Shown: positions 18,588 through 58,880, counted from the first letter of the whole stretch. The stretch is 63,697 nucleotides of DNA, filler included, from Chrysochromulina tobinii (GCA_001275005.1; 7 parts of 7 records of this genome joined end to end with filler, not necessarily neighbours in it), one strand, 5' to 3'. The notes: generated by a model not told the origin, from the sequence alone. Numbers and translations: made by a program.

Positions 18588-21500
18588 CTCGGCGGCCGCA
18601 CGCGCCGTGTCGAGCGCCACGCTGAGCAGCGGAAGGCAGGGGGTGGCCGGACGGCATGGGTGCGCCACGCGCACACCACGCGAGCGCCATGTGCACGCCG
18701 GTCCCTCCCACACCAGATAGGATCTCGACGAACCGCTGCGAGGGCGTCGCCATCACATGCAGCCCCCCGCCGCTGTGCGCCTCGGACGAGGGCGCGAACG
18801 CGCCGTCTTGAGCGCGCCGTCTTGGGCATGCGGCGAAGCTCAGCGTGGCACGCGCCGTCTCGGCGAGCGCGCCCTCGAGGAACGCCGTGTTGAGCAGTAA
18901 CGGACTCCCCTCAGGGATCACCACGAGCCCTCGGCGCGCCATCAGGCTCGTCAGCTGCGCGAAGACGAGCGCCACCCGATCGGGCAGCAGCGCCGTCGTG
19001 GGCGTATGCGCGCCGTCGTGAGCACGGACGGGAGCCGCGCCGTCGTGGGCACCGCCGCCGCCGCCCTCGAGCGCACTCGGTGGTGCGCCGTCGTGAGCAC
19101 TCGGCGACGCGCCGTCGTGAGCACTGGGCGGCGCGACGAGCAGCGCGACGCCCAGGCGCAGCAGCTCCGCGTCGACCCGTACCGGCGCCGTCGTGGGCAC
19201 GCGGCTACGGAAGAAGGCTGCGACCTTGGCCCGTGCAGCCGCGATGCCGCCGTCGGCCTGGAGCGAGGCCCATCCGAAGGTAATGAGGGAGGCAATCAGC
19301 ATGCACTCAGAGGCCATCAGCATGCAATCAGAGGTGATCAGGTCACCTGGAGCGAGGCCCATCCGAAGGCCTGCCGATCAGCGCCGTCGGCCTCGATCAG
19401 GCTCGCGAAGTAGTCGTTGTGCGTCTTCTCGCACCTGCTCGAGCGCGCAGGGTGGCATTCACAGGTGGCTTTCACATGGCATTTCCAGGTGGCATTCACA
19501 GGTGGCAGTCACAGGTGGCATTTCACAGGTGACACTCCGGCGGCACGCAAGGGATAGACACTCAAGGGACAGACACTCAGGAGGCACTCACAGGTGACAC
19601 CCACTCCGGCGCAGAGTCCATCGCACTCGCACTGAGGCGCCGTCCCGAGCGCGCACCCGTGCTCGAGGAGGAGCGCATGCGCGACGAGCGGCGAGCGCAG
19701 GTGGCCCAAGAGGGTGATGGCGCCCAAGCGCTCGTCCGAGAGGCCGCAGCCCTCTGTGTGGGGAAGCGCGACGAAACGCAACGGCGGCGAGCTCGCAATC
19801 TCGGAGGGTTTCTCGGAGGGCGTGTACTCCTCTTGCAGCGCCGCCGCGAGCGATCTCGCAATCTCGGAGGAGCACAAGCTTGTGGGGAGGATCAACGCCA
19901 CCGACTCTGTAGGGGGCGGCATCATCTTGTCGAGGGGATGGCGCACGCTCAACACGACGCTCGAAGCCGTGCCCAGCACGACGCTCGAAACCGTGCCCAA
20001 AACGACGCTCGAAGCCGTGCCCCCGTGCGTCTCCGTGCTGGCCGTGCTCGTCGCCGAGCTGGCCGCGCGGCTCAACACGGCGCCGTCGGAGGCTGGGGCA
20101 CCCGTCGCCGCCGAGAGATCCTCCGAGATTGCAATCTCCGTGTGCGCGGCTGGGCGTGCGAGGCCCCGGTACAAGGGCGGAGCGGCGAGCACGGCAGAGG
20201 CCGAGGCAGTTAGGTTGGCTAGTTGGAGGGGAGGGCAGGCCCATGAGCCCAGAGGTCCACTCACCGCGCCCGCAGGCGCCGTCCCGAGCAGCGGCGAAGA
20301 AGCGAAGCCGTTGTACCTGATGAGGGAGGCAATCAGTGGCAACAGTGGTCATCACGAGGCCATCTCGCGAGGCCATCTCGAGGCCATCACGCGAGGCCAT
20401 CTCGAGGCCATCACGCGAGGCTATCTCGAGGCCATCTCGAGGCCATCACGCGAGGCCATCTCGAGGCCACGTACTGTGAGTCACGCTCGGTAGTCGCCCT
20501 CTGAACGGCCGCCAAGTTTGGATCAATCTCCCAATTGCGCCAGATCTGGAGCTGGTATTGGCCCGCAGCTTCGCCACGTGTCCGCAGCCCCGAGGCTACG
20601 GCCAGCGTCTGCTGGAAGAGGTGCTCGGCGCGCTCGGACGCGCTTAGGGTGGGGTTGGCCGCGTCCACGTCCATGTCCTTCGCCATGAGCTGGTACCTGA
20701 TGAGGGAGGCCATCAGAAGTCATCAGGGGTCATCAGAGGTCATCAGGAGAGTTCCACCATGAAGGCGTACCTGATGAGGGAGGCCATCGGAGGCCATCAG
20801 GGGATGATGGAGGTCATCAGAGGCCATCCGGTACCCTGATGAGGGAGGCCATCAGAGGCCATCAGAGGCGATGAGAGGCGCTCGGAGGCAAAGAGGGCCA
20901 ACTGATAGCACTCAATAGCACTCGATCGCAATCAATAGCCATCAATAGCCATCAATAGCCATCAATAGCAATCAATAGCACTCGATCGCAATCAATAGCC
21001 ATCAATAGCCATCAATAGCACTCAATAGCACTCAATAGCACTCGATCGCAATCAATAGCCATCAGAGGCCATCGGAGGCCATCAGTGGTCCTCACCGGCG
21101 CGAGGTGACCTGATGAGGATGATCATCACAGGTCATCAGAGGTCATCAGAGGCCATCAGAGGCCATCAGTGGTCCTCACCGGCGCGAGGTGGAGACGATC
21201 TTGATGGTCGGCACGAAGGGGAAGTTAGTGATGGAGCCGTTGCCCGTCGTGAAGTAGATGACGTTACAGCCGGTAGCCACTTGGCCGGCGATGGACTCGA
21301 GATCGTTACCTGCGGAGTCCACGAAGCAGTTGCGATCGATGGCAATCGATGGCCATCAACGGCCATCAAAGGCCATCAAGGGAGATCGACTCGAGATCGT
21401 CACCTGGCGAGTCCATGAAGCAGTAGCCATCAAAGGCCATCAAGGGAGATCGACTCGAGATCGTCACCTGGCGAGTCCATGAAGCAATAGCCATCAAAGG

Positions 21501-23783
21501 CCATCAAGGGAGATCGACTCGAGATCGTCACCTGGCGAGTCCATGAAGCAGTAGCCCGCCCCCAAAGTCCCCGCGCCGTGCCGGGCGTCGCCCTCGGCAG
21601 GGACTGCCTCGGGGACTGCCCGTGGTGGCGGTAGCGGCTCGCCGTACCTGCAATCGGATGCAATCAGATGCAATCAGACGCGATGAGATGCAATCAAAAG
21701 GTCATCAGAGGCATCATCAGAGAGATCATCAGAGGCGTCATCAGAGGCGTCATCAGGAGGCGATTCGCGTACTCGACCACGTGCTCCAGCCGGCACTCAG
21801 GGTGCCTCTTCATCGCCGCCCCGAGGGACTTGAGGGCAATGTTGTAGAGCCCGCGGAACAGGTTGCCGCCAGAAGGATTTCCCTCCGCCGAGGCACCGTG
21901 CGCGTTCGCGTAGTTGTGGAAGCGGCCGACGAGATCGACGAAGCGCCGCGCGGTGTGATAGTCGCGCACCGACTGGAGGACGTACTGCTCGGCCCCAATG
22001 AGCTCATCCGTCTCAGCGAGGACCTGCATGCAGGGCCATCAGTCGCAATCAGCCGCAATCAGTCGCAATCAGCCAGTCATCAAGATTCGCAATCAGCCCG
22101 GCTCTCCGCACGAGGGGTTCGTCAGTTTCGGCGCGCACCGCCGCGCCTCCCGCCTCGATGAGCAGTTTGGATGCCGCCGCGACGAGCGGGTTAGCCGCGG
22201 TGCCTACAATACGAAATGGTGTCCACCAGATTGCAATCAGCCGCAATCAGCCGCACTCAGGCGCACTCAGCCAGAAGGTGCCGATCATATTGCAATCAGT
22301 GGTCGTCCGAGGGCACTCAGAGGGCACTCAGAGGTGGATCAGAGGGCACTCAGAGGGCACTCAGAGGGCACTCAGAGGCAATCGGAGCGCAATCAATCGC
22401 AATCACCCGAGAAGGCATCCGAGCCACCGCACTGCTGCGCGACGATGAGCGACGAGGCGGCGCATGGTACCCTAGCCATCGCACGCAGTGGCGGCAGCAG
22501 CGACGTGGCCGTGCTCGCCGCAGCGCTCAGTTCGGCGCCGAAATCCCGCAGTTGGAGCCGGAGCACAGTGGGACGGAGGGCCGCGAGGTCCTTGGCGCGT
22601 CCGGCGATGGCGGCTGCGGCGACGAGCATCTCGTATGAGAGTCCCGCGCCTGCCTTCGCCGCGGCCACGTCAGCGTCAGTTTCGAGCACGAGCGCGGCGC
22701 CCACGTTTGGATGAAGGAGGAGGCCGAGGAGCGTGCGTACCTGATGAGGATGGTCATCAGAGGTCACCGCCCACGTTTGGATGAAGGAGGAGGCCGAGGA
22801 GCGTGCGTACCTGATGAGGATGGTCATCAGAGGTCATCAGAGGTCATCAGTGATCATCAGAGGTCATCAGTGGTCATCAGTGGCTCGAGGAGGAGGCCGA
22901 GGAGCGTGCATACCTGGGAGAGGCCCTCGGTCGTCATGTGTGAAGACCCTTCGCAATTCATCAGAGGTCATCAGAGGTCATCAGACGTCATCAGACCCTT
23001 CGCAATTCATCGCAATCCATCGCACCCACGCAATCCATCGCAATCAAGGTGGTTTCGCAATCCATCGCAATCAAGGTGGCGCACCAGGTGGGTTTGGTTT
23101 CGCGCCGCGCTCGCGTTCGCGCTGCCGCCATCCTCAGTGTGAGGCAGCGCGACGGCGCCGTCGAGACCGCCGTGCGGCTCCTCGCGCGCGGCTGGCGCCA
23201 CGCGTCGCTCGAGCGCGCGCGCGAACGCGTTGCTGCGCGACGAGAGCGGCAGGATCACGAGGTAGTTGCGCGTGCCGACACCGCGGCTCGCGGGCGCGCG
23301 CACGAAGCCATCGAAGGTGGCGTCGAGGCGGTGGAGCGGCACGGGCGGGCCGGGGACGAAGCTCGCCTCGCTGAGCGCTGCCGGCTTCACGTAGTCGGCG
23401 AAGTTGGGCGTGAAGCCCGGCTCGAGGCCGCGCGGTAGCAGTGCGGCGATCACCTTGGCATTGCGCAGCCACTCGCCGGGCGCGATGGGCCGCAAGGCCT
23501 TGCCAAAGGGCTCGCCCCACGAGGTGATGAGCTCGCCGAGGGCGATGGGCGCCACGGCGAAGCGGTGGCCCTCGAGCACGCGCGCGCTCAGCCGGATGGT
23601 CGTTCTCGCGTGGGAGATGAGCTGGCCCGCCTCGAGGTCCTCCTTGGCGATGGCGGCGTTGTCGAGCGGCGCAGGCAGCTGGGCGACGGTGTCAAAGGCG
23701 AGTGGAACGGCCGAGGGCGGCGGCGTGAGAGCGGAAGCCGGGGTCGACGATCTTGGCTCCTCGTACGCTAGTTTGATCGGCAT
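18342..23783 (-). CDS. UxaA/GarD-family (altronate/galactarate dehydratase-like) protein with SAF domain and a partially duplicated UxaA domain; 10 exons
   Basis: Inferred exons 23783-23085, 22740-22407, 22203-22139, 22023-21773, 21647-21532, 21309-21180, 20696-20475, 20316-19657, 19434-19347, 19257-18342. Joined frame gives [13 protein letters not shown] (SAF), [91 protein letters not shown], and a second [10 protein letters not shown]...LLEHGCEKTHND. One apparent +1 frameshift in the G-run 18639-18643. Confidence 0.85.
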
Positions 23784-23903
23784 GTCGCGACAAGCGCGTC
23801 CGCACAGTTGGTCCGCATGGAAGAAGTCGTGACGAACCTGGACGAAATCGAAGTTCGCAACCTTTTTCAATGGCTTTACACTTTCGTCTCAACGCTCCGG
23901 ACA

Positions 23904-25386: not shown

Positions 25387-25486
25387 NNNNNNNNNNNNNN
25401 NNNNNNNNNNNNNNNNNNNNNNNNNNNNNNTTAATTAATTAANNNNNNNNNNNNNNNNNNNNNNNNNNNNNNNNNNNNNNNNNNNN
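25387..25486. other. Artificial contig spacer
   Basis: N-run + TTAATTAATTAA + N-run. Confidence 0.99.
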
Positions 25487-25958
25487 GGGACGGGCGTGGG
25501 GAAGGCGACGCTCGGCGCCGTGATCGAGCGCATCGCCGTGCTCGTCGACGGTGGGCACGGACGTCGCACCACGCACCGCTCCGGTCGCCTACAAGCGCGT
25601 TGCCGTGCCGAGCGTGGGCACGTGCGTGGTATCCAGACAAAGGTGACGACGGCGTCTGTTAAACAGAAAAATCGAAACCGAACCATCAAATAGGTTCCAA
25701 AAAAGGGCTCTGGTGAATGAAATGCATGCAACTTTGGCAGGCGCGCTCCGTGCACCAGCGTGTCCCCAGACGCTCATCTTCGGCCGACCGAAGGCCACAC
25801 ACCGGCCCAAGGCAACGCACGCGTGAGCGCGTGCACTTACTCCCCCACCCCTTTCCGACGTATAGTTAAGGTAGGAGTGAGCGTGGGGGGACCGCGATGA
25901 AACTGAACTGAACTGTGATCATGGTTCATCAACTCCCATTTCGCAAGGCGCCTCGCAC

Positions 25959-28900: not shown

Positions 28901-30729
28901 GTTGACATCCAGGCCTGAGCTCAATGGCGAGCGAGCGGTCATTGAGGCACCTGCGGCTGAGGGACGCTATCAAGTGGCAGTGCCACACGGTGGCGGCAAG
29001 GCGCTGCGCATCCGGCTGAAGCGTGAGGCCCTCACACCAACGCCGATGGTCGGTGGCGTAGACCCGAGGGTACTTCCGAAGTGGCCAGGGCTAGCATGCG
29101 GCCCCTCCGTGCGTTGCATGCTCGATGGCCAGTGGAAAGACACCGACTCACTGATCTGGTCCTTCCAAAAGGCGATTCCGGCAGGCGTGAGCGTGGTTGG
29201 AGGCGGACCGAGGGATGGCGGGGCAGACCAGTTGGCGATGAGGGCGCAAATGGCTGAGATGATGAAGATGGACCCGAAGCTTGCGAGCAGCCCGATGGCG
29301 CAGCAGCTGCTACAGCGAGCGATGATGGGGACGCAGGCGTCCAACCTGACGCCGCACACCCAATGGCTCTGGTCGCTCGCGCACATCGTCTCCGACTACC
29401 ACAAGGACACTCCGAAGGGCGTCTTTCGCTTCCTTCTTGCGCATGCCAAGAGCGGCGGCGAGATTGTGCGCGGTGGGGGCTCGGCCGAATGCCTGATCAT
29501 CGATGTCCTCTCGCCCGCGCTGGCGTGCCCACCAGAGATCGAGACGCATTCGACTGTTTGGGGCGACTCGCCTGACGGCATGCAGAAGAGAGGCCGGGCC
29601 GCGAGTGAGCCGTTGCTCCCAGTTCGATACTGGCACATTCCAGACGATGACGCGGATCGCTCGAAGCGCCAGCTGGCTCTTATGCAGGCTGGCCCTCACG
29701 AATGTGCGATGACGCGAGCGGCTGTAGCGACCAAAGCTGAACAGGCCAAGGAGCGTAGCAAGCGGGACAACGGATCCGTCACTGGACAGATCTGCGTGCA
29801 AGCGGAGAGTGTGGAGGAGGTGCACTCGGCACTAGCCATGCTGCAGGCGAACGAAGCATTACTCTCGCCGCAGTACCGCGTCTTCTTTGACAGTGCGAGT
29901 CGCTCCAATGGCCCCGATTGCATGCTGATTGCCCCCGATTGCATGCCGATGGTCCCCTCAATCGCACGCAGGTGCGAGTCGCTTCAACGGCCCCGTCCAA
30001 TTCCGACCCTCGTTTCTCGTGCCCCCTCCCCATCCCACCCCGGAGCCACTCAAGCGATGGTTGACGTGCACTGGCTGCGACGCCAAGCAGGCGAGCGCCG
30101 TCGCTTCCTTCTGCAAGTGCAGCCAGTGCACGACGCATTGGTACTGCACGCCCGAGTGCCGAGATCAGCACAGTCCGGTGCACAATCTCGTGTGTGGCGC
30201 GAGCATTGCGACACTCCGTGGAGCGCTCACCAACGCACGCCCGTCTCTTCTCATTTCCACGGTGCCTCCGGATTCCTGCATCGGCAAGTATTGCCCAACG
30301 TTCAACTTCCAGGGCGCGGCGTCGCCTATTGGGGTAGGTGCAATGGACACAGGGAACGTGGACAAGTACCTCGTGAAGGCGGTGGCGCCGATCAATTTGC
30401 ACGGGAACCAGTGCTTCCTAGTCAAAGTGCAGCCGCCAGGGAGCGGCGAGGGTGGCAGCGGCCCGTGTGGCTTTCCTGGTAGGGCATTGTTTACATCCAG
30501 CGCAGGCGAGGGCAGCCCTTGGGCATGCATGGTCTACGACGAACCACGCAGTCTGACCAACGTCTACCTGCCCTTGGACACGCCCGGCATCGAGGACCTG
30601 CTCGCACTTATCAAGCGAAGCGGCATCCGCGTCGCAAGTGGGGCGTACAAAGCTTACTGCGAGGCCAAGCGAGAGGGCCCGTGCCTACGCATTTACATCG
30701 ACCGATTGGCACCACAGCAAAAGTGGTGA
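25959..30729 (+). CDS. Multidomain protein: ZUP1/ZUFSP-like C78 peptidase + SH3-like modules + ankyrin repeats + MYND zinc finger; intron 29893-29971
   Basis: C78 motifs WDCGYANI, IEAAWREGFDP, PLYFQHDGHSCSIVG and LLVRDP; ankyrin GSTALHNASYNG and GNTPLIAACAAGH. Removing the 79-nt intron joins FFDS|ASRFNGP into the frame with CTGC...CSQC...YCTPECRDQH...HNLVC (MYND). Confidence 0.75.
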
Positions 30730-31227: not shown

Positions 31228-31259
31228 TAAGTCAAGTCAAGTCAAGTCGAGTCAAGTCA
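31228..31259. repeat. (AAGTC)n microsatellite in a divergent intergenic region
   Basis: aagtcaagtcaagtcaagtcgagtcaagtca. Confidence 0.9.
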
Positions 31260-35266: not shown

Positions 35267-35672
35267 GATTTACCCAAGGGGGTAGGGGAGGGATTAATAT
35301 CTGGATTTGCACCCCTTCCTCATACCCTGATTACAAACTGAATGATTTACCCAAGGGGGTAGGGGAGGGATTAATATCTGGAACTGGATTTGCACCCCTT
35401 CCTCATACCCAGGGATTATACAAACTGAGTGATTTACCCATAACCCAAGGGGGTAGGGGAGGGATTAATATCTGGATTTGCACCCCTTCCTCATACCCTG
35501 ATTACAAACTGAGTGATTTACCCAAGGGGGTCGGGGAGGGATTAATATCTGGATTTGCACCCCTTCCTCATACCCTGATTACCAACTGAGTGATTTACCC
35601 AAGGGGGTAGGGGAGGGATTAATATCTGGATTTGCACCCCTTCCTCATAGAACCCTGTATTACAAACTGAGT
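35267..35672. repeat. ~77-bp minisatellite, 5 copies
   Basis: Unit gatttacccaagggggtaggggagggattaatatctggatttgcaccccttcctcataccctgattacaaactgagt starting at 35267, 35344, 35431, 35515 and 35592. Confidence 0.95.
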
Positions 35673-35903
35673 GTTGAGGGTCGTTTGCTGTTAATCGCAG
35701 CACTCTAAATTGCGCCCGCGGGTATGCTAAGGCGTAAGGGTATGCGCGCCGTGACATTGCGATGAGTAGAATCGTTTTCGGATTCGTCCCCTGCCACCCT
35801 TTCCCTACGCGCTGCATGGAATACACATGGAGTCATGCACATCATTCCTTCGGCGTCAACTCACTTGCACACGCTGTGCTTCACGCTGCGATGGGCATCC
35901 CAT

Positions 35904-36719
35904 CTATTGGTGGTTGAGGTACCATGTCGCGGCCGCAAGGGCGGCGAAGAGGATGCCGCCGGCCATGTAGACCATGGGGATGCCGCGCTCCTCGTCCTCT
36001 TCGTCCTCCTCGAGCAGTGCGATCTTGCCGGCAGGCTGACTCCATTCGCACGCTGGAGGCGTGTTCGCGGGCGGAAGCGCCTGCAGCAATTGGAACACGT
36101 CCGCGTCCCAGCGCTTGTACTCTGCCTCGTTGCCGGGCTCGGCTGTGAGCAGGGCCATTGCACATCAAGCCCGCGTCAGCGTCAAACACTGGGACAGGGG
36201 GCTGGGGCATAGGGCGTTCAGGCCTTCAGGAGCCGCACGGTCGTGCTCATCGATTTCGGCACGCATGGTCATCCTCCTGGAGCCGCAATCTCCCAAGAAC
36301 TTGTCCGTCAGGCGTGGGATATTCTGAAAGGTGGTATAAGTCGTGCTCCCATAGCCGAGAACTGCATGCTGCACGCCCACGAGCGCCGTCGATTTCATGC
36401 TCGCCTCAAGGCCGAGAATCTTGGTAAGCTCGCGCATGTTGGATGGCGGATCGCCGGCCCCATAAGAAGAGGTGCACACAAGGAGTACGTCCGCAGTCTG
36501 TGCGACGAACTCCAAGTTCTTGGCGGACGCGTTGCCGCCACCTCCAAGCTTCTTGGCGAGCTCATTGCCGGTGAGCACGTCCACGATCTCAAAGTTCGTT
36601 GCTGCGGCCTTCCACTTCCTGACGAGTCTTTCGAGCCCGTGCTTGGCGTTACCACTCTCCGAGCCGTAGACGCAGAGCACACGCGTCTTCTTCCCAGGCG
36701 TCTTCGGAGGCGAGGACAT
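35904..36719 (-). CDS. Flavodoxin-like (CPR-type FMN-binding) protein with C-terminal tail anchor; intron 36238-36143
   Basis: VYGSESGNA, VCTSSYGAGDPPSN and HAVLGYGSTTYTTF. A 96-nt GT-AG intron restores frame (HD P EPGNE); ends GIPMVYMAGGILFAALAAATWYLNHQ*. Confidence 0.85.
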
Positions 36720-36827: not shown

Positions 36828-39001
36828 TCAGCGACGGGCCGGCACTATCAAGTGGCGTAGCGCCGCGAGGGTCTCCGCCTCGCCCGCCGATCGCAACATC
36901 GCAAACGCCGTCTGCTCATGCCCGTGCAGCAGGGCGAGCGCCAGCGCGGAGCGACCCTTGCCGTCCAGTGCACTGAGAGGGCAGCCGTGGTTGAGCAACG
37001 TGAGCACAGTGACCGTGTGGCCACCGCTCGCGGCCGCATGGAGGGCTGTACCTGATGAGGGAGGCAATCAAAGCTCATCAGTCCTGATGAGGGAGGCAAT
37101 CAAAGCTCATCAGCCACCGCTCGCGGCCGCATGGAGGGCTGTACCTGATGAGGGAGGCAATCAAAGCTCATCAGACCTGAGGAGGGAGGCAATCAAAGCT
37201 CATCAGCCACCGCTCGCGGCCGCATGGAGGGCTGTACCTGAGGAGGGAGGCAATCAAAGCTCATCAGACCTGATGAGGGAGGCAATCAAAGCTCATCAGA
37301 CCTGATGAGGGAGGCAATCAAAGCATGGAGGGCTGTACCGCTCCCGGAGGCGTCGAGGGCGCCCGCGACGGCGCCGGTGTGGAGGAGCACGAGGGCGAGC
37401 CCGGTGCGTCCAGCGCCCGCGGCCACGTGGAGGGCGCGCTGCTTGGCCGGGTCCGTCACGGAGGTGGCGCCCGCGACGGCGCTCATGGCAGTTGGGAGAT
37501 CGGCTTTGTTGATGGCGCTCTCGCGGGCGGCTGCGGCGTCGAGGAGCGCGTCGACGATGGCCGTATGACCGAGCGTCGCGGCCACATCGAGCGCCTCGCG
37601 CTCGTCGTCGGGGCTGAGCGTCGCACCGGGCGCGGCGGCGGCGGAGCCTGCAGCGGATGCGGCGGCCGCGGCCCTGGCAGAGTGGCGAAGCAGCAGCGCC
37701 ACCAGAGGCAATGAGCCCGCCGCCGCAGCCGTCGTCAGAGGGCCACGTACCTCCTTTGCCACTTCGACAGCTGCGCTTGTCGCGCTGGTGCCCGGCGCAG
37801 CGCCCGTCGTGGAGGGTGCACCCGCCGTCTCGGCACGAGGCGCCGTCTCGGCACGAGGCGCCGTCTCGGTACGAGGCGCCGTCTCGGTACGAGGCGCCGT
37901 CTCGAGCGCGAGAGGCGCTCCGGCGTCGAGCAGCCTCATCGCGGCCACCTCCATCCCCTCGGCACAGCACACGAGCAACGCACCCCTTAGCAGCGCCTGC
38001 GTGGCGCCTCGCAGGGCGGCCTCTGCCGTGGCCGCGTCCTCCGCCGCCCCGGTACGCAGCAGCACCGCGAGCGCCGCTGCGTGGTTGCCTGTCACCGCCA
38101 AGCGTAGCGCCGTCTCGCCACGCTCGTTCATGCTGCACGCGGCGCGAGAGGCGGCGGCCGCTCCACTGGTCTCGTCACGGCTGAGAAGCATCTGGCTCAG
38201 GAGGGGCGCATCGCCCGCCGCCGCCGCCAGGTGTGCCGGGCAATTCCCACGGCTGTCGGCCACTGCCGGGTCTGCGCGCGCGCCGAGCAGCGCAGTTACC
38301 GTGTCCCCGTGCTTTCGGAACGTGGCCAAAAAGAGTGGCGTGGCGCCGTCGCTGTTGCGCGCATCGACGGCCGAGCCGCCCGCAATGAGCGCCTCGAGCG
38401 TCGGCGTCGCACCGGCCAGCGCGGCGTAGTGCACCGGCTGGTTGCCATGCCGGTCGCATGCGTGGACCGACGCGCCCGCCCGCAGCAGCGCCACCACCAC
38501 CGTTGCGCGCCCGCCCAGGGATGCACGTAGCAGCGCAGTGTGGCCGTTTTCGTCGAGCGCGTCCACGGCGGTGCCCGACGCAAGCGCCTCCTGCACGCCG
38601 GCAACGTTGCCTTGCTCTGCCGCGCTAAACAGCCTTCGCTCAACCGTGGATCGCACGCCCGCCGTGGAGACTGCTCGCACCGAGTAGGAGAGGGAGATGG
38701 AAGAAACCCATGACTCCGAGTTGGTCCACGTGAGCCGGCATGCGTCCACGCCGGCGCTGACGAAGAGCTGACCCTTGGATTTCGGCTGCAGCTCGTCGAG
38801 GAGCAGCTTGCCACTCTGCGTGTGGACAGTGAAGTGCACGCCCTCCTCGCTCGCCTCGCCATACTCGTACACGATGTACGAGCCCGACGCCGCGTCGAGC
38901 GGTACGAGCAGCTCGTGCGCCGCTCGCGCCGCGATCGAATACTCGCTCACGGAGAAACGAATCGCGGTCTTGAGCGCCTCGACCAGATTCGGCGCCGCCA
39001 T
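36828..39001 (-). CDS. GOLD-like domain + ankyrin repeat protein; intron 37338-37052
   Basis: N-terminal ...CRLTWTNSESWVSSISLSYSV (GOLD-like); many ankyrin repeats (GHTALLRA, GNQPVHYAA, GATPLFLA). Splicing gives SGSG|TALHAAASGGH...GRSALALA. Confidence 0.85.
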
Positions 39002-43635: not shown

Positions 43636-43792
43636 TGCGGTGTTCGGGGGGGGTTCGTGGCTACTTAAGTCTTTTGTCAAGCAATTCAAGTCTATGCTAA
43701 CACGATTCAAGACACGATTTTGAGACTAGTACACACACGCTCCAGTAGCCTCAAAGCCATAAGCCTTTAATTATTGACGAAATACGGCCATA

Positions 43793-43823
43793 CTTGACTT
43801 GACTTGACTTGACTTGACTTGAC
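43793..43823. repeat. (GACTT)n microsatellite, reverse complement of AAGTC
   Basis: cttgacttgacttgacttgacttgactttgact, about 30 nt upstream of the ATG at 43856. Confidence 0.9.
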
Positions 43824-43855
43824 TCGCTGCGTGGCGGACCGAGCCTCCAGAGATC

Positions 43856-45474: not shown

Positions 45475-48400
45475 ATGCCCGCAGGCATCAGGTCCAAGGA
45501 CGCACCCACCATGCGCACGCTGCCGTCGCATCTTCGCTATGCGAAGCTGTCGGCCGATCTTCCTGCGGAGCCGAAGCGGACGCCCAGCGAGCTCTCGGCC
45601 GAGCTTCATGGCCTGGCCAAGCCGGCGGCGGCGCTGCAGCGGCCTCGCGTCGTCGCGCTGCTCAACATGTCGGAGTTCACACACAATGTGGACTCGGTCG
45701 TACCGCTCGACGAGCCGATCTTCCAGCCGAGCCCGCCCGAGGTCGTCTTTGACGCGTTTGAGGCGCACAGCAAGTACACAGCCACCCTGCGCTTCCGCAA
45801 CAACGACAATGTCAACCGGCGTCTCAAAGTGCTCAAGGTCGATTCGGTGCACTTCGAAGTGGTGCCGCCCAAAGGCACCGCCGCGGGTGGCAGCAAGGTG
45901 GCGCCCGGCATGGAGGTCGCTTATCAGATCATCTTCACGCCGCGTGCTGAGCACGACCACGCGTGCGAGCTCGTGTGCCTCTCGGAGCGCGAAAAGTTCG
46001 TCGTGATGATCTCTGCGCGCGGCCCGCGGCCGTGCTTCGAATTTCCCGACGGCGTCGACTTTGGGCTGCAGCCGGTGCGCGCGAACGCATCCGAAGCCTT
46101 CCTGCTGCGGAACACAGGAAAGGCGGATGGTCGCTTCGTGCTTTCGGTGCCGGCGCCCTTTTCAGTGACGCCGTCCGATGGCGCCCTCAAGGCGGGCGGG
46201 GCGATGCAGCTCACCTTCGACTTCAAGCCGGAGCTTTGCGGCGAGTACGCCGAGGAGCTCCTGATCGAGTACGACTCGGGCGAGCGCTGCTTCGCGCGTC
46301 TCGCAGGCGCCTCGAGCGACGTCGAGGTGGGCCTCGAGCGCTCTCTGCTCGTGCTCGAGCCGTGCTACATCTCGCTGCTCTCGCAGACAACGCTCAAGCT
46401 GCACAATCGGAGCGACGTGAAGGTCCACTTCTCGTGGAAGGCTCTGCGCTCCGCTGCCGAGGACGAGCAGCGGCGCACTGACGGCCTCATCGCCCTCGAC
46501 GACGCAGCTGGCTCGATGCCCGCTCACGCGCTGCGCACGCAGCGGCGGCTCGTCGAGGAGGACCCGCTCCCTTTTGCGGACGCCATCTTCGCAGTAGAGC
46601 CGCTCGAGGGCGAGATCTTCCCCAACTCGTACTGCGAGCTTACCATCGCCTTCCGCCCGCAGAACGCGGGTGAGGCTGCCGTGACCGCTTACTGCGAGAT
46701 CACCGGCCGCGAGACGCGCCTGCCGCTCACGCTCCAAGGGCGTGGCCTCGGCCCGAAGGCGCTGTGGCTGTACGATTCGCTCGACATCGGCGACGTGTAC
46801 GTCAACTCGGAGCACAAGTACGAGGTGGTCCTCGAGAACCATGGTGATATCGACTGCGACTACAGCCTCACGCCCAACGACTCTCTCTTCGCCTCGCGCT
46901 TCTCCTTCTCGCCCACCGCGGGCCACCTGCGCTCGCGCCAGCAGCAGATGGTCGAGGTGCGATTCCTCTCCGATCTGCTGGGCGAGCTCAATGAGACCTT
47001 CGTGTGGAAGCTGCATGGGCAGCCCGACCCGCTGCCGCTCGTCCTCAAAGGGCGCGTGGTCGCGCCGTCGTTCCACTTCGACGACTCGGCCAAAGAGGGC
47101 ATCCACTTTGGCGATGTGTCGCTCGGCTTCCTGAACAGCGTGGACTTCACGCTGACCAACACCTCCGAGATCCCGATGCGCTTCCGGCTGCGCATCCCGA
47201 ATGAGCACGGGGAGGAGCACGATCAGTTCGATGTGCAGCCGAGCGCGGGCATCATCTTGCCGCATGGAGAGCAGCAGCTCCGCCTCAACTTCATCGCCAC
47301 GGCGGTCTCCAAGTACAATCTGTCGATGCTCGTCGACGTCGAGGCGGTGGGCGATTCGCTGCTCTCGCTCCCCATCACGGCCATGTGCCTCGCGCCCGGC
47401 ATCAAGCCCTCGGCCGATGCGCTCGATTACGGCGACGCCTTCATCAACCACACCTACTCGCTGCCGCTCACCATCTTCAACCCGTCGCACCTGCCTGCCA
47501 AGTTTGAGGTCATCGACGAGGCGCCGATGCTCAAGGCGATTGGCGAGCATGAGGTGACGCCGCACAATGGCCAGATCGCGGCCAAGGGGAAGGTGGACGT
47601 GGTTGTCAGATTCACCACGCGCCGGCTCGGCCCGATGTCGCTGCCGCTCTACGTGCGCATCGTGGGCCTCGAGGAGGCGGCCTTCCAGGTGGAGCTGAAT
47701 GCAACATCCATCGGGCCCAAGGTGGTGCTCGCGCAGCCCAAGCTCGACTGGGGCAAGGCGCCCGTGCTCACCGACGTGCCTCGCAGCCTCGGCCTCGACA
47801 ACCAGTCGCTCATCCCCGCCGTCTTCAAGGCATTGCTCCGCCGGAGTGATGGTCCCTTCGCACTCACCGAGAAGGAGTTCATCATGGCGCCCGGCGAGAA
47901 GCGCGAGCTCGTGCTCACCGCACACACAGACGACACCGTCAAGACGACCAACGACCTGATCCTGCAAATCAAGTACGCGCCGGAGGTCGTGGTCCCGCTC
48001 GTGGCGACGGGCATTGGCGCAACGATCTCGGCGTCGCGCAACATGGCGAGCATCTCCTTTGGGGAGTGCTTCTCTTCGCGCATCCTCAAGGAGGAGTTCA
48101 CGCTCGAGAACAAGGGCCGCCGGCCGCAGGTGCTCACGTGGGTCAACCAGGTGACCATCCCACCGCCCAAGGACAAGAAGAACCCCGATGCCGAGGTGAA
48201 GATGCCCATTCCCGCCTTCAGCATCACGCCCGATAAGGCGATCATCGAGCCGGGTGCCTCGTGCGTCTTCACAGTACAGGCGCTCTCGAAGACTGCGGGC
48301 GAGCGCATGGAGAAGTTTGTGTGCGCGGCCCAGGTGCAGGGCGGCCAGGGCAAGCCCGAGCCTCTGTACGAGACGGCGGCCTCGTGCACCTTCATCGAGC

Positions 48401-51400
48401 CGCTCGTCGAGGCGACCCCCTCCGTCCTCGAGTACGGGTACTCCTACAAGCCGGGCGACGAGGCCGCGCCGGTGCCCGCGCAGACGAGGCGCCTCAGCCT
48501 GAAGAACACGTCTCCCCTCGCGCTCACGATGCTGCTCAAGACGCCGCCCCCCTTCTCGGCGTCCAAGTCGGAGATCTTCCTCGCCCCCGACGACGTGGGC
48601 AATGTCATCATCTCCTACGACCCGAACTACCCCGGCGATCTCGTCTCGCGCGCCTTCACGGACACGCGGCTGCAGCTGGAGTTCAAGGAGCACCCGCAGA
48701 AGGTCTTCGTCAGCCTGCAGGCACAGACGCACTTCCCCAACCTGGCCATGAGCCTCACCGAGGGCGCCTTTGGCTGCCTGCTCAACGAGTCGCCCGCCAA
48801 GCAGGTGATGCAGCTCACCAACACGTCCAAGGTGGGTGCGTACTACGCGTGGACCTTTGCGCAGGGCGAGGGCGTGTCGAACCCGTCCGAGCCGCACCTC
48901 GCATTCGACATCCTTCCCATCCGCGGCTACCTCGAGGCAGGTGCGAACGAGACGATCGAGCTGCTCTTCAAGGGCGGCAGCTTCGCCAAGGCGCGCGCCA
49001 TCGCGTTGTGCGAGGTCGTGGGCGGCCCCACGTACGAGCTGCCGCTCTCGGGCGACACCTCCGAGATCAAGTACTCGCTGTCCGAGTCGCGCGTCGATTT
49101 TGGCATGCAGTCCTACGAGCGGGTCGAGGAGCGCGAGCTCTTTTTGCAGAACACGGGCAAGGTGCTCTTCTCGATGACCCTCGACAAGTCAGTGCTCTCG
49201 CGCAAGAACGTGGTCGAGGTGCTTCCCGAGAAGGCCGACGTCAAGCCCGGCGAGAAGCTCAGGATCCTCGTGCGCTGCCTGGCCGGGCTGCCGACCAAGC
49301 TGACCGAGTCTTTCTTCCTCAACATCGCCCACTTCCCACCCGAGGAGGTCGTGGTCACCGTCGAGGGCATTTACCCGCGCATCTCCCTCAACCTGCCGCG
49401 TGATCGCTCGGAAAAGTACGCCGGGTTCTTCGTCGAGGCCGAGGCGAAGGTCGCCGCCGAGAGGGCCAAGGAAGAGGCCGAGAAGGCGGGCGTGCCTCTC
49501 GAGCCCGAGGACGCGCCGCTCGCCGAGCTCACGCCGGCCGAGGTGTGCACCAAACTGAGCGGCAGCTTCGCCGGCTTCAAGTCGCTGCTCGAGAGCTGGG
49601 GCAAGCTCGTCGAGGGCGCGACCATCGGCCGCGACGACTTCCGCATCGCGGTGCTCTCCACACTTGGCAGCACCGCCACCGCAGCGGCCGCCAACGGCAC
49701 CTTCACTCACCTGACGGGTGGCGAGGAGGCGGTCGATGTGACCGGTGGCGCTGCGCCGGCGGCCGAGCTCGGTGTCGCCGTGCTGCTGGAGGCGTGCAAG
49801 CCACCCAAGACGAAGCGCGTGGACTACGTCCGAGTCGCGGCTGGCGCTGGCGAGGGCGGAGAGGTCGTTGTCGCCCAGGTGGGCGCGCAGCTGGACGCCG
49901 AGGAGGACGAGGACGAGCCGGGCTCCCCGCGCCCGCTCGGCACGACGCTCGGCGAGACGGCCGGCACGATCGCGTCACCGCCGTTGACGGGGCGCGCGTC
50001 GATGCGCTCCGGCATGTCGGGCCTTCGCGTCGCCTTCAATGACTCGGACGTGGATGTCGAGGCTGAGCGCCTCTTCCTGTCGGCGTATGCGAGCAATGTG
50101 CTCTCGCGCCACGGCGCCGAGGGCGGCCTCCTCATGCCACCGAACACAGGCGCGAGCCGTGCCTCCTCGGCTGGTAAGGGCCGGTACGCGCCCACCCTCG
50201 AGCCGCTCCCGCCGGTGCCGCCCGACTTTGTGCTCTCGACGTACGTGCTCGACTTTGGCCACGTCATCAAGGGCACGCAGAAGAAGAAGGTCTTCAAGCT
50301 GCGCAACGCGGGCTGGAACTACGTGTCGCTCGACATTGACAAGAACGCGATCGCGCCCTACGGCCTGCGCGTCGAGCCCGACAAGCTCGTCAAGCTCCCT
50401 GGCCTGCCCGACCCCGAGACGGCCGAGTTCACGGTCACCTTCGCCTCGAAGGCGCCCAAGGTGGGCCTCGGGCGCATGGTCCAGGAGCTTCGTCTACAGC
50501 TTAAGCCCGGGCCGCCCGTCGCCATCATCATCAAGGCGAACGTGACGATCCCCGAGGTCAAGGTCACTGTGCCCACGTCGATCACCGTGAGCAGCGTTGA
50601 GCCTAACTCGATCGACTATGGCAACGTCATCGTCGGCCAGTGCTTGACGGCCACGGTCGAGCTGTACAACCCCAAGGAGGTTGTGGCCGAGTGGAAGGTC
50701 AACCCGCCGCTCGAGAATGCCAAGGACTTTGACCGCTTCGTATGCCTGCCCGACTCGGGGAACCTGGCGCCCGGCGCGCGCCTCCAGATGCAGATCCGCT
50801 TCTCGCCCAACACCGAACGCCCCTTCGGCGTGCGGCTCATGATCAAGGTCGCCAACAACAACAAGCCCGTCTACCTTAACGTCATTGGCCAGGGCAAGGA
50901 ACTCAAGGTTGCCACGCAGCCCGACAGCGTGATGGTGCCCGCAGTGCAGCCGCATGCCGACGCGGCCTCGGCCTTCTTCCGACTGACCAACCCGTCCGAC
51001 TACCCGATCGAGGTGTACTCGTACGACTTTGACGGGTTGGTGGACGATAAGGAGCACGCCTTCCTGCAGTACGAGGCCATGGTGCGTGAGGACACGTCGG
51101 CGCCCACCGTGCAGAATGACGCGCTGCTGCTGCCGCTGCGTGAGCCGGGCGATCCCTTTTGGCAGTCGATCAGCGACGGGTACGAGGAGAGGAGAGCCGC
51201 CGCCTTGGCCGCGGAATTGGGGGAGGAGGTCCCGCCTCCACCGCCCGCGCCGGAGGCGGTGGGCGAGCTCGAGGCACCTCCGGAGCCAGTGGAGCCCAAG
51301 CAGCGCACGCTCATCATGCTCACGCCCGCGCCGCTCGCGCGCTCGGCTGAGCTCGCCAAGGAGCTCGCCTTCGCGTACCAGGTGCCCGCAGTGCTGCTCG

Positions 51401-52560
51401 CCGAGGTGGTGGCCGCTGAGGACAGACGGCTGCGCGACGAGGCGTGGGCCGCTCAAGAGGCGGCGCGCGAGGCCAGGGTGGCTGATGCGATGGCGGCGGC
51501 TGAGGCGGCGGGTACGGAGTACGTGCCCACCGAGGAGGATGAGTATGTGGAGCCCGAGGCGCCGCCAGCCCCGCTCGATCCGGCGAACATCAGCGGTTGC
51601 ATTGCTGCCGCCCTCTCGCGCGAGAAACGGCCCGATGGCGCGGTGATTGTGATGCCCGAGCAGCCCACGGTGTTTGCAACCAAGGAGCAGCTCCTCGAGG
51701 CCGTCGTGCTTGCGCTCGGCTACGCGCCACCGCCGCCGCCCGAGCCGCCACCGGATCCGAAGGCTAAGAAGGGCGCGCCGCCGCCGCCGCCGCCGCCGCC
51801 ATCGGCCGGTGAGCCGGTGTGGTCGTTCGCGCTCCAGACCACCCTGAAGGATGTGCCGCCACTGGCCGAGGGCGACGAGGGCTATGTGCCGCCGGCCGAG
51901 GGCGAGGCCCCAGCGCCGTGGCTGCCCAAGGGCGAGGAGACTGTCGAAGCGCGCGCGGCAGCACAGCTGGCGGCCGAGATCGACGCGATGCCCAAGCTCG
52001 GCCCGATCCCCGACGTGGAGGAGGAGGCGTACGAAGCGCTCGAGCCCACGGCGCGCGAGCACTTCGAGAGGAAGCGGCGCGAGCACCGGCGGCGCCTCGC
52101 CGTCGCCGAGGCCAAGGTGGCCGCGGCCAAGATGGCGTTTGCCTTCCGCCTTGTGCAGCTGCAAGAGGCGTCCGCAAGCTTCGCGTCCCTTGAGCAGGCA
52201 GCCTCGGCTAAATTCTTCGTCGCCCCGCCGGAGCCGCCCCCGCCGGAGCCCGAGCCTGAAGGGGGATGGCCCGAAGGCGAGGCGCCCGCGCCGTGGCGGC
52301 CGCCGAGAGGGCTGGCAGGCCACTATACGGTCGACGCGTCGCTGCCGCTCGACGCGGTGATGGAGCTCGTCGAGGCCTGCCTCTTTGAGCGGCCGCCCCC
52401 AATCCCCGACGTGCCGCCACCTCCCCCTATCCCTCTGCCCTTTGGCAACCAGATCCTCAAGCGCACGAAGCTGCGCGCGCAGCGCCCCGTGCCTACTGGT
52501 CTCCTCGACGATGCCGGCCGTGGGCGGCTGTACACGATCCCGCCGCCGCCGCCCAAGCCC
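45475..52560 (+). CDS. HYDIN: Hydin (axonemal central-pair protein), N-terminal ~2360 aa, truncated
   Basis: Tandem ASH/Ig-like domains ([10 protein letters not shown]...RRLKV...SKVAPGME...[52 protein letters not shown]). Intronless over 7 kb. Confidence 0.93.
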
Positions 52561-52563
52561 GAT

Positions 52564-52798
52564 GTAATGGGGTGCACGCTCGGAAAGTTCGTGATGGTCA
52601 CCAACTGCGGCGACCAGATGGACTTCCGCTCGCTCGGCAACATTTACAAAGGTGTGGCGATGGCCGGTCTCTGGAGTTGCTTCGACGAGTTCAACCGCAT
52701 CAACCTCGACGTGCTCTCGGTGGCGGCGCAGCAGGTGGGCTCCGTGCTCATGGCCGTCAAGATGGGCGCCCAAATGTTCCAGTTCACAGACGGCCAGA
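52564..52798 (+). CDS. Fragment of an axonemal dynein heavy chain AAA1 domain, in frame with Hydin
   Basis: [56 protein letters not shown]...FQFTDG is the canonical dynein AAA1 segment after Walker A. Confidence 0.9.
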
Positions 52799-52898
52799 NN
52801 NNNNNNNNNNNNNNNNNNNNNNNNNNNNNNNNNNNNNNNNNNTTAATTAATTAANNNNNNNNNNNNNNNNNNNNNNNNNNNNNNNNNNNNNNNNNNNN
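52799..52898. other. Artificial contig spacer
   Basis: N-run + TTAATTAATTAA + N-run. Confidence 0.99.
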
Positions 52899-52991
52899 CG
52901 GTTCACGCGCCTCTCATTTTCGAGGTCGATCGTCCGTTGGTTCAACTTAGCCTCGGCCCTATCCGCACGAGCTCTCTCCTGGTCAAAATTC

Positions 52992-55076: not shown

Positions 55077-55321
55077 CGTTTGCTCCCTGATGCGCTAGAC
55101 TGATGCGATGCGAAAAGCGAAAGTGAAGGACGAAACGTCAAACGAGAAACCAAACATAACGGACGGCGGTAAATAGGACTTGAATACATGCTAGTCGAGT
55201 TACCCCCTTTTCCACCGCCGGAGCATCGGATTCACCTCGACGTGATATACGGCTCGGCGGCAGCTGCCTCCTACGTGCAAACGCGGCTTATGTGTGAGCG
55301 CGCGCTGCAGCCGTGCAGACT

Positions 55322-55421
55322 NNNNNNNNNNNNNNNNNNNNNNNNNNNNNNNNNNNNNNNNNNNNTTAATTAATTAANNNNNNNNNNNNNNNNNNNNNNN
55401 NNNNNNNNNNNNNNNNNNNNN
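55322..55421. other. Artificial contig spacer
   Basis: N-run + TTAATTAATTAA + N-run. Confidence 0.99.
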
Positions 55422-55564
55422 CTGCTCATGCTCTCGGCAATCAATAAGATCAAGCCGGTCGAACTCTTTGCAAGGATGATCTCAGTGAGCTGCCTTGATG
55501 GCCTCCCTCATCAGCTGCCTTGATGGCCTCCCTCATCAGCTGCCTTGATGGCCTCCCTCCTCAG

Positions 55565-58500
55565 GTGAGCGGCGGGGTGAACGGCAGGGTGAACGCGAGG
55601 GCGAAGGCTCGAGCTCCGACATGGCGTACGTGATGCCTACGCTGCTCATCGCACTCAAAGGCCTCCTCAAACTCCTCTTGGCCAGTGGTGAGCGAGGGCA
55701 GCGATTCCAAGCCGAGGCGGAGGAGTGCGGTACGCTGATTGCCTCCGATGTCATATGAGTGCCTCTGATGACCTCTGATTCCAAGCCGAGGCGGAGGGGT
55801 GCGGTACGCGAGCTGTTCGCCTCTCATGACCTCTACTTGCCTCTTATTTGGCCTCTATGACCTCTAATGACCTCCCTCATCAGGGCTGCCCACGCGCATT
55901 CTGAAGGCGATCGATCTTGCCGGGCGCTCCGGCGGGCTTGTGGCCGATGGCGTCGGTGAGAAGGTGTATCATTTGGCGACGGAACTCCACGTGAAGCACT
56001 TCACCCCGGTCAGCGGTGACATGGTGCTCGTCACGGCGCTCGGACCGACCTACACGGCCCTCTGATGACCTTTGATGACCTTTGATGACCTCTGATGACC
56101 TCAGATGACATCTGATGACCCCTCGCGATGGCTCCCCTCATCAGGTGCTCGTCGAGGCACTCGACGTCGTCAATGCGCGCCTAGCCGCCGCACGGCTGCA
56201 AAAGGAGCAGCAGGCGGCGGAGCGGGCGGCCGAGGCAGCCGCCTCTGCCGAGCCCCGTGCGGCCGTCGATGAGCTCGATTCTCTCCTCATGGAGCGCACG
56301 CCCGCAGCCGCTAAGAATGCGTCTGCACCGATGCCACCTGCGTCGTAGTCGTCATTGGCGGCGGCGAGGTCGGCGGCGGCGGCATCGGCGGGGCGGGGGC
56401 GGAGGCCACCGCCCCTCCCGCCTCGACCTCTGACGTCCGGCCCCCCTTGGTGGTTACGCCGTCATCCGAGGGTGAGGCACAGCCGTTGCCTCGAGCAGCC
56501 CGCGCGCGCGCCATGCGCCCCCATGCGCCCATTGATTTGAGAGGGCGCGACTGCTGCCGCCCATCGCGTTGCGCGCCATGTACACCGCTCTCGAGGCCTC
56601 GTTTGGTGCGGACGCGACGTCTCGGATCGACGACAAGTTCAAGAGCGCCGACCCGCAGCTGCGCCAGGGCGTGTGCCATCTACTGCGCAAGGAGTACCAG
56701 AAGGCGTACGTCTGATTGCCTCTGATTGCCTCTAATTGCCGCGGAGGATCTTCTGATTGCCGCCGTGTACCATGCCATGACCCTTTTGATTGCCTCCCTC
56801 ATCAGGTACAAGCTCTGCGACCAAACGGAGGACCCGCGCGACCAGATCTACTCCGCACTCTCGCAGCTCAATGAGGTACCTTGATTGCCACTGATGAGCT
56901 CTGATGAGCTCTGATGACGATCGATGAGCTGTGATGACGCCTGATGACGCCTGATGGCCTCCTTCCTCAGGGCTGGGACCCAGTCGAGCCGCGTCGACGC
57001 ATCGAGGTGTACCTGCGCATCTTCTCGAGACGCCGCTCTAGATGCCGCAGGCCGCCTTCCACCCCGTCGTACTACCTCGCGCACAAGCTGCTCAAGCCCG
57101 CCAAGGAGCACCGACTGCGTGCATCGCTGTACCTGCGCACGTTCGCCCTCTTCGAGGCAGAGGCGGCGATCTGGCTCGACCCAAATAAGGATACGGTCGA
57201 GAAGCTGATGGAGAACGACGACGACGATCCGCTCGAATCGGCATCCGCGTCGCTGACGAAGGCGCAGTGGGAGCGGTACGTCTGATGGCCTCTGATGGCC
57301 TCTGATGGCCTCTGAGGATGGCTGATTGCCTCCCTCAGAAGGTACAAGCTCAAGCACCCCGAGATTAAGTCGAGCGCGATGGACAAGTTGATGGCGATGG
57401 TTGGCCTCGAGCGCATCAAGCGCGACGCGCTCAACGTCGCGTACTCCGTCGAGCTTGCAAGCCTGAAGCCGGTGGACGCTACCGCCGACGTGAACCGCCA
57501 CTTCGTCTTCATCGGCAACCCGGGCACGTCTGATGGCCTCTGATTGCCCTTGATGGCCTCTAATGATGGCCCCTGGTGGCCTCTCTGATTGCCTCTAATG
57601 ACGGCGGATGGCCTCATTTATCAGGTGATTGCCCCAGATGGCCTCTAATGACGCCTCTAATGACGCCAGACGGCCTCTATCATCAGGTACGGGCAAGACG
57701 GAGGTGTCGCGCCTGATGGCCAAGATCCTGCACGACTTCAAGCTGCGCTCGAGCTCCGAAATACGGAACACCACCGGCTGTAATCTGCTCACGGGACGGC
57801 GCGGACGAGTTCAAGAAGATGCTCGAGGAGGTCGACGGCGGCGTGCTCTTCATTGACGAGGTGTACCAGCTCGACCCGAAGAACAACAAGGACGGCGCCG
57901 ACATCATGAACCTGCTGCACACCTTTGCGGAGGATAAGCGTGGTGAGCGCTCGGTTGTGCTTGCGGGCTACCGTGATGAAGTCGAGACGTTACTCTCGTT
58001 CAACCCGGGGCTCGCGTCGCGCTCCCCAAACACGTGAGTGCGCCTCTGAGTGCATGCACGTGCTCACCACGGCGCCACCAAGCACGTGAGTGCGCCTCTG
58101 ATTGCATGCTACCTGCCAGCTGATTGCCACTGATGACCTCCGATTACGCCCCTCGTCAGGTGGGTCTTCGAGGACTATCTCGAGCCCGAGCTGCGCTCCA
58201 TCTATCACAAGATGATGAGCGACCGCAAGATGGTCGTCGAGTCGGCAAGCTCTTTTGGCGTGAACGCGACAACCTGATTGCATGCTGCGTGCATCGCTGA
58301 GTGTGCATCGCTGAAAAAGTGCATGCTGATTGCCCCCCTCATCAGGCAAGCCCGTCGGTCGCGTCGATCGTCGCCTCACGCCTCGCCTACGGTGTGGGGC
58401 AGCGCGGCTTTGGCAACGCGCGCGCGGTGCGCCGCCGCCAGATCCTCAACCTCTGATGACCTCTGATGACGCCTCTTGATTGCACCCCTTGATTGCACCC

Positions 58501-58880
58501 CTTGATTGCCACCAGATTCTCAACCTCGTAATGCTGCGTGGCTGAGTGCATGCTGATTGGCTGCCTCATCAGGTGCGCAATCAGATCGAGCAAGCTATCA
58601 AGCGACAAGAGGAGCGCCTCTCGATGCTCATCGACGGAGGCGAGACGCCGAGCGCTGAGAGATGGCGACGACCATCTCGCGGGAGGATGCGCTGGTACGG
58701 AGGCCACTGATGAGCAATGATGATCTCACTGATGAGCACTGATGATCCCATTGATGAGCAATGATGATCCCATTGATGAGCGCTGATGATCCCACTGATG
58801 AGCACTCTGATGACGCCTCTTGATTGCGCCCCTCATCTGGGTGCCAAGCCGGTGCTCGACAACTCGCCTGAGCTCAAGTG
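55565..58880 (+). CDS. Internal part of a multi-exon gene with a CbbX/CfxQ/SpoVK-type AAA+ ATPase domain; several frameshifts
   Basis: Inferred introns 55730-55883, 56024-56144, 56706-56805, 56876-56970, 57276-57341, 57524-57686, 58034-58159, 58260-58345, 58427-58572. Spliced motifs AMDKLMAMVGLERIK, HFVFIGNPG|TGKT, GGVLFIDEVYQL, VVLAGY, NPGLASR, FEDY and GFGNARAVRN. Confidence 0.8.

Follow-up and report, generated by a model that had tools for sequence, protein, structure and literature searches.

How does the same intron end come to stand in unrelated genes of one alga? The question is raised by a stretch of 63,697 nucleotides, filler included, from Chrysochromulina tobinii (GCA_001275005.1; hereafter the window), a string of contigs joined with N gaps and with 63% G+C. 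Here, a 19-nt motif closes introns of three genes—i.e. a fused altronate-dehydratase-type gene (− strand), an ankyrin gene (−), and a multi-AAA gene (+). An initial annotation took these ends for either a family of related, recently spread, Introner-like sequences or a dedicated 3′ splice signal. The reading that we favor, with moderate confidence, is that new introns arise by homology-guided, repair-type template switching that copies the 3′ part of a nearby intron. As to origin, a window protein shares a 90% cluster with a Chrysochromulina parva protein, and the nearest Atlas clusters are haptophyte.

The motif in its host genes

A motif search allowing up to 2 mismatches returns 21 matches in the window and none in any of 100 dinucleotide shuffles, so the claim that related 3′ ends recur across unrelated genes stands. 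As also claimed, the motif is always sense to its host gene (21 of 21; 5 matches in the dehydratase gene, 7 in the ankyrin gene, and 9 in the AAA gene). Ten matches are intron ends and 11 are internal repeats. The motif is exact at 20317, 20697, 37052, and 56805, and has 1 mismatch at 58345, 2 at 55883 and 58572, and 3 at 56144; the motif acceptors at 55564, 56970, and 57341 come in addition to those first listed. Most sites named in the initial annotation are acceptors, but the variant at 19281 is internal to an intron ending at 19258, and the one at 62310 falls short of the acceptor at 62302.

The motif is also frequent beyond the window, where summed DNA depth in its repeat bins is 10^3–10^5 vs ~150 (a rough sign). 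It is absent from viral contigs, its 14 matches in prokaryote genomes are single and near chance (with the expectation estimated by hand), and Rfam finds no RNA family in the window. The outcomes named in advance as refuting the initial reading are mostly not seen, as copies of the motif are sense-oriented and rare in non-coding DNA; the motif is nevertheless very common across the genome. The filler of motif introns consists of 10-nt units built on CTGAT, which, within the motif, we take to be branch-like.

Strong conservation up to the AG, the branch-like CTGAT, and the constant sense orientation could all be expected if the 19-mer were a dedicated splice signal of one intron class, kept by selection for extended small nuclear RNA pairing or as a protein site. 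We consider this highly improbable, given that only 10 of 28 delimited window introns end within 2 mismatches of the motif, while the other 18, some in the same genes, lack it, and that motif variants and motif-less neighbors are spliced. The motif is also absent from the introns ending at 36143, 59965, and 61557, in line with their first description as ordinary. In addition, the alleles differ in the motif at 57341, yet RNA with window alleles skips 57276–57341, where the motif's last bases are changed. A splice signal also leaves the exon duplications described below unexplained. Selection on the branch site and AG probably helps to preserve the motif all the same.

RNA contigs span the junctions of the introns ending at 20317 (one contig), 55883, and 58572. 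AAA-gene RNA joints were read on locus L059, which is 97.4% identical to the window gene, and then mapped to the window; 18 of 19 RNA variants on L059 are the window allele. Among RNA contigs on L059, no joint is found for acceptors 56805 and 58345; parts without RNA cover are uninformative on splicing, and one listing of joints, which includes the dehydratase region, is dominated by DNA repeat joints. The introns of the three host genes are as follows.

AAA gene
55485–55564, +, three 25-nt motif units; boundaries predicted
55804–55883, +, 80 nt; RNA joint; an alternative donor at 55730 is possible because the exon end is duplicated
56024–56144, +, 19-nt diverged copy of the next exon at its start; donor predicted; an RNA piece begins at the acceptor
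56706–56805, +, exact motif; 4-nt duplication; boundaries predicted
56876–56970, +, 2 mismatches to the motif; boundaries predicted
57276–57341, +, 66 nt; the motif's last bases are altered in the window but not in L059; RNA joint in 3 of 4 runs
57524–57686, +, GC-AG; RNA joint in 4 of 4 runs
58034–58159, +, decamer filler mixed with a second cassette family; RNA joint
58245–58345, +, GC-AG; near-identical to an intron further along the gene (see below)
58427–58572, +, 146 nt; 6-nt duplication; RNA joint in 3 of 4 runs
58695–58839, +, TG end in the window, AG in L059; RNA joint on L059

Ankyrin gene
37052–37338, −, 287 nt; its first 16 nt are copied from the next exon; holds seven copies of the motif and, internally, two exon copies of 32 nt each; predicted removal restores an open frame

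Dehydratase gene
22741–23084, −, intron 1; 344 nt; one RNA contig; three stacked acceptors, of which the last is used; after each of the two internal ones comes a copy of the next exon's start (24 and 43 nt, respectively)
22204–22406, −, intron 2; decamer filler, no motif; placed by homology
22024–22138, −, intron 3; opens with a diverged ~20–27 nt copy of the next exon's start; no motif
21648–21772, −, intron 4; decamer filler; 5-nt exact duplication
21310–21531, −, intron 5; bounded by exon copies of 23 and 24 nt; 64-nt unit three times
20697–21179, −, intron 6; 483 nt; exact terminal motif; internal copies at 20771 and 20836; placed by homology across the junction, with two RNA contigs ending at 20697
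20317–20474, −, intron 7; 158 nt; GT-AG; exact terminal motif; 4-nt exon duplication; RNA contig
19435–19656, −, intron 8; other filler; 5-nt duplication
19258–19346, −, intron 9; internal motif variant at 19280–19298; its last 23 nt perfectly repeat the end of the upstream exon

The window AAA gene (56145–58694, +) has stops and frameshifts relative to L059. RNA contigs hold two of its frameshifting insertions and are spliced, and the gene is thus a transcribed broken allele. After 58839 the contig enters low-complexity sequence (58885–59101) instead of the L059 continuation, possibly through misassembly or in a rearranged allele. The spliced dehydratase aligns with relatives over 7 of its first 8 junctions, the seventh lying in a poorly conserved linker. 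The named relatives of this fused gene (18345–23783, −) are bacterial UxaA-family proteins, and an old gene transfer is possible; the window may have a frameshift error near 18635, as a DNA run shows one base fewer there.

Exon copies and their local source

Beyond the window, the introns were compared over a metagenome sample of 146 loci, returned out of ~3400 stretches holding the motif. Together, window and loci contain 216 terminal motif acceptors, and in 84 of these the start of the next exon has an upstream copy (score of at least 12), compared with 2 of 645 shuffled pairs. The copies measure 11–55 nt (median 23) in 43 clean cases and are perfect in the youngest; exon duplications in window introns are of 1–24 nt. 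The acceptor is directly followed by GT or GC in 195 of 216 instances, and the phases of the 150 callable introns (83:23:44) match those of GT in coding sequence (52:15:33%). Exon copies, GT/GC after the acceptor, and the phase match all point to a duplicate that gives the donor and a cassette that gives the acceptor. The anatomy seen is exon, n duplicated bases with the donor, cassette with the acceptor, and exon, and excision is exact. Duplication and filler length are negatively correlated (rho = −0.57, n = 29), with totals mostly of 69–93 nt, a clustering that suggests a minimum intron length. For this correlation 3 of the 43 clean-case rows were dropped, and 4 of 43 for the microhomology test below (over-long false pairs, a half unit, and a duplicate locus).

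In 163 of 193 cases the sequence downstream of the motif codes in the sense direction, and in 6 it is non-coding; among random segments, 118 of 485 are non-coding. The 24 "antisense" calls are no evidence of antisense copies, as the classifier of coding sequence and strand is wrong on 2 of 23 known exons. Repeat units up to 300 nt apart are co-oriented in 926 instances vs 5. An origin of the exon copies from another allele or from complementary DNA is not needed, because their excess of third-position mismatches (29 of 63) fits ordinary selection on the exon copy.

The same footprint accompanies a second, non-repetitive cassette of ~45 nt. Its core, GCATGCAAGTGCTCACCACGGCGC, is followed by a pyrimidine tract, often with CACAG, and occurs in 43 distinct contexts; ~24 nt of it are conserved over unlinked loci. 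A long exon duplication is present in 17 of 29 cases (null, 3 of 141), in loci that were not selected for this cassette.

Second cassette, sites: L015, L020, L026, L028, L033, L049, L053, L059 (3510–3587 and 4351–4437), L087, and others
Second cassette, partial copy: window 58050–58085

A core shared across unlinked loci would suit very small, non-autonomous mobile elements. An element-encoded enzyme would move them, either an HUH transposase of the Replitron type or a non-LTR/Penelope reverse transcriptase priming on intron RNA; one end would be fixed, the other fuzzy, and the target duplication variable in length. The accessible text on Replitron-1/N1 of Chlamydomonas (PMC10288648) describes such a fixed end next to a dinucleotide, in one orientation, with variable duplications and a fuzzy end from the parent's flank, and the same source reports a Replitron protein at one C. 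tobinii locus. Variable duplication and a fuzzy end from the parent's flank are also found here, and non-LTR elements make duplications of variable length (PMC9977147). As described there, however, Replitron-1/N1 is at least 910 bp long, has terminal direct repeats, needs its transposase, and avoids coding sequence, and is not reported to make introns (PMC10288648). Replitron insertions are under-represented in coding sequence and introns, whereas the copies here are rare in non-coding DNA. A weak DNA hairpin of 6 bp (z = −2.2) in the G variant of the terminal 20-mer speaks for such elements; the T variant and the second family have no significant one, and the cassettes' termini are undefined. 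Moreover, the sources are local and allele-matched, two unrelated cassettes leave one footprint, and no transposase or reverse transcriptase domain is present in 8 proteins scanned. We therefore see mobile elements as a rather unlikely, though serious, alternative. Intron RNA forming a hairpin was also set aside: of 5 introns, a single one folds better than its shuffles (z = −5.1); the L055 item, cut in a shifted register, was not used.

Evidence for recent gain by template switching comes from a 79-nt intron with a perfect 28-nt duplication that L055 has and that L093, 98.3% identical to it, cleanly lacks. The start of its filler has a sole match among the 146 loci and the window, an intron 359 nt upstream in the same gene. 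Specifically, the filler has the base that distinguishes L055 from L022 and L093 in the source intron, and source and target exon starts are alike at 11 of 16 bases. An allele-matched upstream source and the likeness of exon starts favor gain by copying in cis, a direction unpolarized by any outgroup. The second source–copy pair is in the AAA gene, where intron 58245–58345 is near-identical over its full length to an intron at a non-homologous site downstream (L059 5512–5612) and carries the exon copy of that other site. It is the one whole-intron copy found, with a 6-nt duplication.

Local sourcing is also visible across the sample. The best within-locus filler match is 16.6 vs 13.8 expected (higher in 75 of 127; P = 2e-4), and where fillers of one locus are alike, their exon starts have a longer stretch in common (3.0 vs 2.0 nt, for 16 vs 228 pairs). 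Locus-specific filler variants recur at non-homologous sites of one locus (three introns in L073, four in L030, and two in L079). At the junction of duplicate and filler, microhomology shows a modest excess, with 2.45 vs 1.64 nt (3 of 500 simulations, n = 29).

Alternatively, old introns might be renewed in place, without net gain: an intron's 3′ part would be duplicated in tandem along with the start of the exon, the older unit would then be lost, and gene conversion would spread the repeats. Stacked acceptor-plus-exon copies are indeed common at many loci, just as 11 of the 21 window matches are internal; dehydratase intron 9 shares its position with a relative (P0006), and a perfect 28-nt repeat eases precise loss in L093. 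Nonetheless, 8 of 9 dehydratase positions are read through in several relatives: P0002, P0006, the cluster of P0008, and P0149 (on contigs of 8–38 kb) have one frame through the first 8 of the 9, after which P0002 and P0006 enter apparent introns of their own. Furthermore, the filler in L055 traces to another intron on its own haplotype, and one whole intron stands at two non-homologous sites. Renewal as the sole explanation thus appears improbable, and some of it probably occurs beside gain.

Under template switching, synthesis in a coding exon would proceed n bases beyond a GT or GC. At a microhomology it would jump to the repeats of a second intron, most often one in the same gene, and continue there across the branch-like CTGAT units up to and including the terminal CAG. 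From there it would return to the starting GT or GC, aided by the likeness of both exon starts. Selection would keep only products of at least ~70 nt with a GT or GC donor, and the same event at an existing intron boundary would give stacked internal copies. Theta-type repair polymerases and template switching by reverse transcriptases are candidate enzymes. The template may be DNA or an unspliced transcript of the gene, as homology at the return point would mean that it includes the source's next exon. An excised lariat is disfavored, since fillers start far ahead of the last branch-like site, and since the source exon start resembles the target's.

Scarcity in non-coding DNA leans toward a transcription-coupled process, although constraint on short spacers or the motif-based sampling could be another cause. 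A more tentative proposal is that introns self-propagate without a transposon, with the unspliced transcript as a repair template that writes any intron's 3′ end into a neighboring exon. This would explain copies that are sense-only, exon-only, and from the same gene, as well as one footprint for two unrelated cassettes.

Several observations weigh against template switching as we propose it. The L055/L093 pair is the sole presence/absence case, without an outgroup, and the one other clean intron for which a real comparison with an independent allele exists is present there. In the same way, 11 of 11 comparable AAA introns are also in L059 (the first AAA intron lies outside L059) and differ in repeat number only. 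Although the duplication in L055 is perfect, the copied filler and its source are not identical: a 9-nt deletion and 3 substitutions separate them. Long duplications are lacking at 132 of the 216 acceptors, the 146 loci are a biased sample picked by exact motif, and bulk filler similarity does not differ significantly within and between loci (P = 0.26; pairs not independent). The near-absence from non-coding DNA is not predicted by plain DNA repair, and the copying step has no named enzyme. Finally, the read-through in relatives is an outgroup argument only if their proteins were called without splicing, as their frames entering apparent introns suggest, and intron 9 has its position in common with P0006, a distant relative. 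No further difference in intron presence is found between L016/L018, L022/L055, L022/L093, L036/L045, L028/L083, or window/L059; L062/L089, L039/L062, and L032/L067 were rejected as allele pairs, being repeat-protein paralogues.

Other introns and features of the window

Introns are also predicted elsewhere in the window, and an acceptor has been duplicated without filler.

29893–29971, +, predicted intron without motif; 79 nt, repeat-filled; 24-nt copy of the next exon (2 mismatches) at its start
62302–62641, −, predicted decamer-filled intron; 340 nt; partial motif stops short of the acceptor
59866–59980, +, two in-frame acceptors (59965 and 59980), 15 nt apart, from a duplication without filler

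Intron-free and intron-rich genes adjoin in the window. For example, a Hydin-like frame of ~2440 codons (45475–52797, +) has no intron and no repeat unit; with a dynein AAA_6 match at the contig end, it is possibly a chimera. A low-complexity frame of 1819 codons (11715–17174, −) has one ankyrin patch, a strong GC skew, and no reverse transcriptase or transposase domain. Tandem arrays of 5–6 nt units (AAGTC, ACTTG, and AAGTTC) lie in gene-end spacers at 31229–31259, 43792–43824, and 60799–60832, and an intergenic 77-nt tandem repeat at 35443–35673 has ~3 copies, 94% alike. The same 88 bases at the start of the last contig (59202–59289) and at the window end (63610–63697) are either a dispersed repeat or an assembly overlap.

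Relation to known routes of intron gain

One of the two readings in the initial annotation was that of recently spread, related intron ends. In favor of recent spread are the single presence/absence pair, positions specific to the lineage, and the local copying, but membership in the Introners as defined is not supported. In Symbiodinium/Polarella-type Introners, as here, the insert gives the acceptor and the duplicated exon a GT or GC donor, splicing is exact, location is genic, and phase is set by the co-opted bases. Unlike those Introners, whose duplications are fixed at 4 or 8 nt and whose similarity extends over the family (with inverted ends in the Symbiodinium type), the introns described here have variable duplications of up to 55 nt, unique 5′ ends, low-complexity filler, and a neighboring intron as source.

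A classical Introner would be a short DNA transposon that ends in inverted repeats, makes a short duplication of fixed length, and has since been overgrown by repeats. Such an element would account for a polarity like that of Symbiodinium, in which the 3′ site is carried and the 5′ site co-opted (PMC9860276), and for the 4–6 nt duplications of several window introns; Introners are also listed for metagenome-assembled genomes of Chrysochromulina. Its chances nevertheless look very slim, and the data already largely refute it. Introners as defined in PMC9860276 are similar up to both intron ends and not low-complexity, whereas here the 5′ ends are locus-specific, unique exon copies, and the filler consists of decamer arrays, the second cassette family being non-repetitive. 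DNA-transposon Introners have fixed duplications of 3–9 nt and inverted repeats of at least 6 nt, but the clean cases here have long, variable ones, perfect in the youngest, and there is no fixed or common left end, with only a 5–6 bp stem within the last 20 bases. Identity is 80% or more in just 4 of 405 intron pairs and stays below 90% in every filler pair. What is shared with Introners is their working, with one site carried, one co-opted, and exact excision, and a recent gain between close relatives, seen in one case (L055 vs L093) without an outgroup. The one Chrysochromulina sp. Introner in the accessible part of PMC9860276 (Fig. 2C), compared here by its description only, is from the same genus and lacks inverted repeats, but has a 4-bp duplication and the opposite polarity, the 5′ site being carried and the 3′ site co-opted.

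Other likenesses are with tandem duplication, intron transposition, and break repair, as summarized in the accessible part of PMC3443670: direct repeats at the boundaries, a splice site from an exon duplication, and sequence from another intron. Tandem duplication, as described there, takes both splice sites from a duplicated AGGT. In the clean cases here, the acceptor comes from the cassette, although dehydratase introns 5 and 9 do end in copies of the upstream exon. Transposition moves a whole intron by reverse splicing (PMC3443670), whereas we find mostly 3′ parts with long duplications. The class thus combines two of seven classical gain models, in many introns of one genome and with a traceable source. 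By comparison, the accessible part of that review counts 14 cases of transposition and 5 of break repair, and states that most recent intron gains have no traceable source (PMC3443670).

No published description of this intron class was found in a search limited on subscription papers and supplements, which could hold related families. Neither the main text of the 2025 Introner survey (PMC12130899) nor the review PMC11282704 mentions Chrysochromulina or haptophytes, and the accessible part of the C. tobin genome paper mentions introns once. Intronic repeats of 10–11 bp may also occur in Emiliania, although the same limited search turned up no record of them. The survey of PMC9860276 would be expected to miss the class, because it required similarity at both ends and filtered low-complexity families.

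The origin of new spliceosomal introns is a long-standing question. Given a common footprint, a source–copy pair on one haplotype, and a genus that is cultured and sequenced (PMC4580454), the mechanism is testable here. Stacked CAG/GT copies mislead gene finders, and as surveys needing end-to-end similarity would miss this route, its share of intron gain may be undercounted. Should the more tentative proposal of an RNA template be true, many introns of this alga would come from RNA-templated self-copying.

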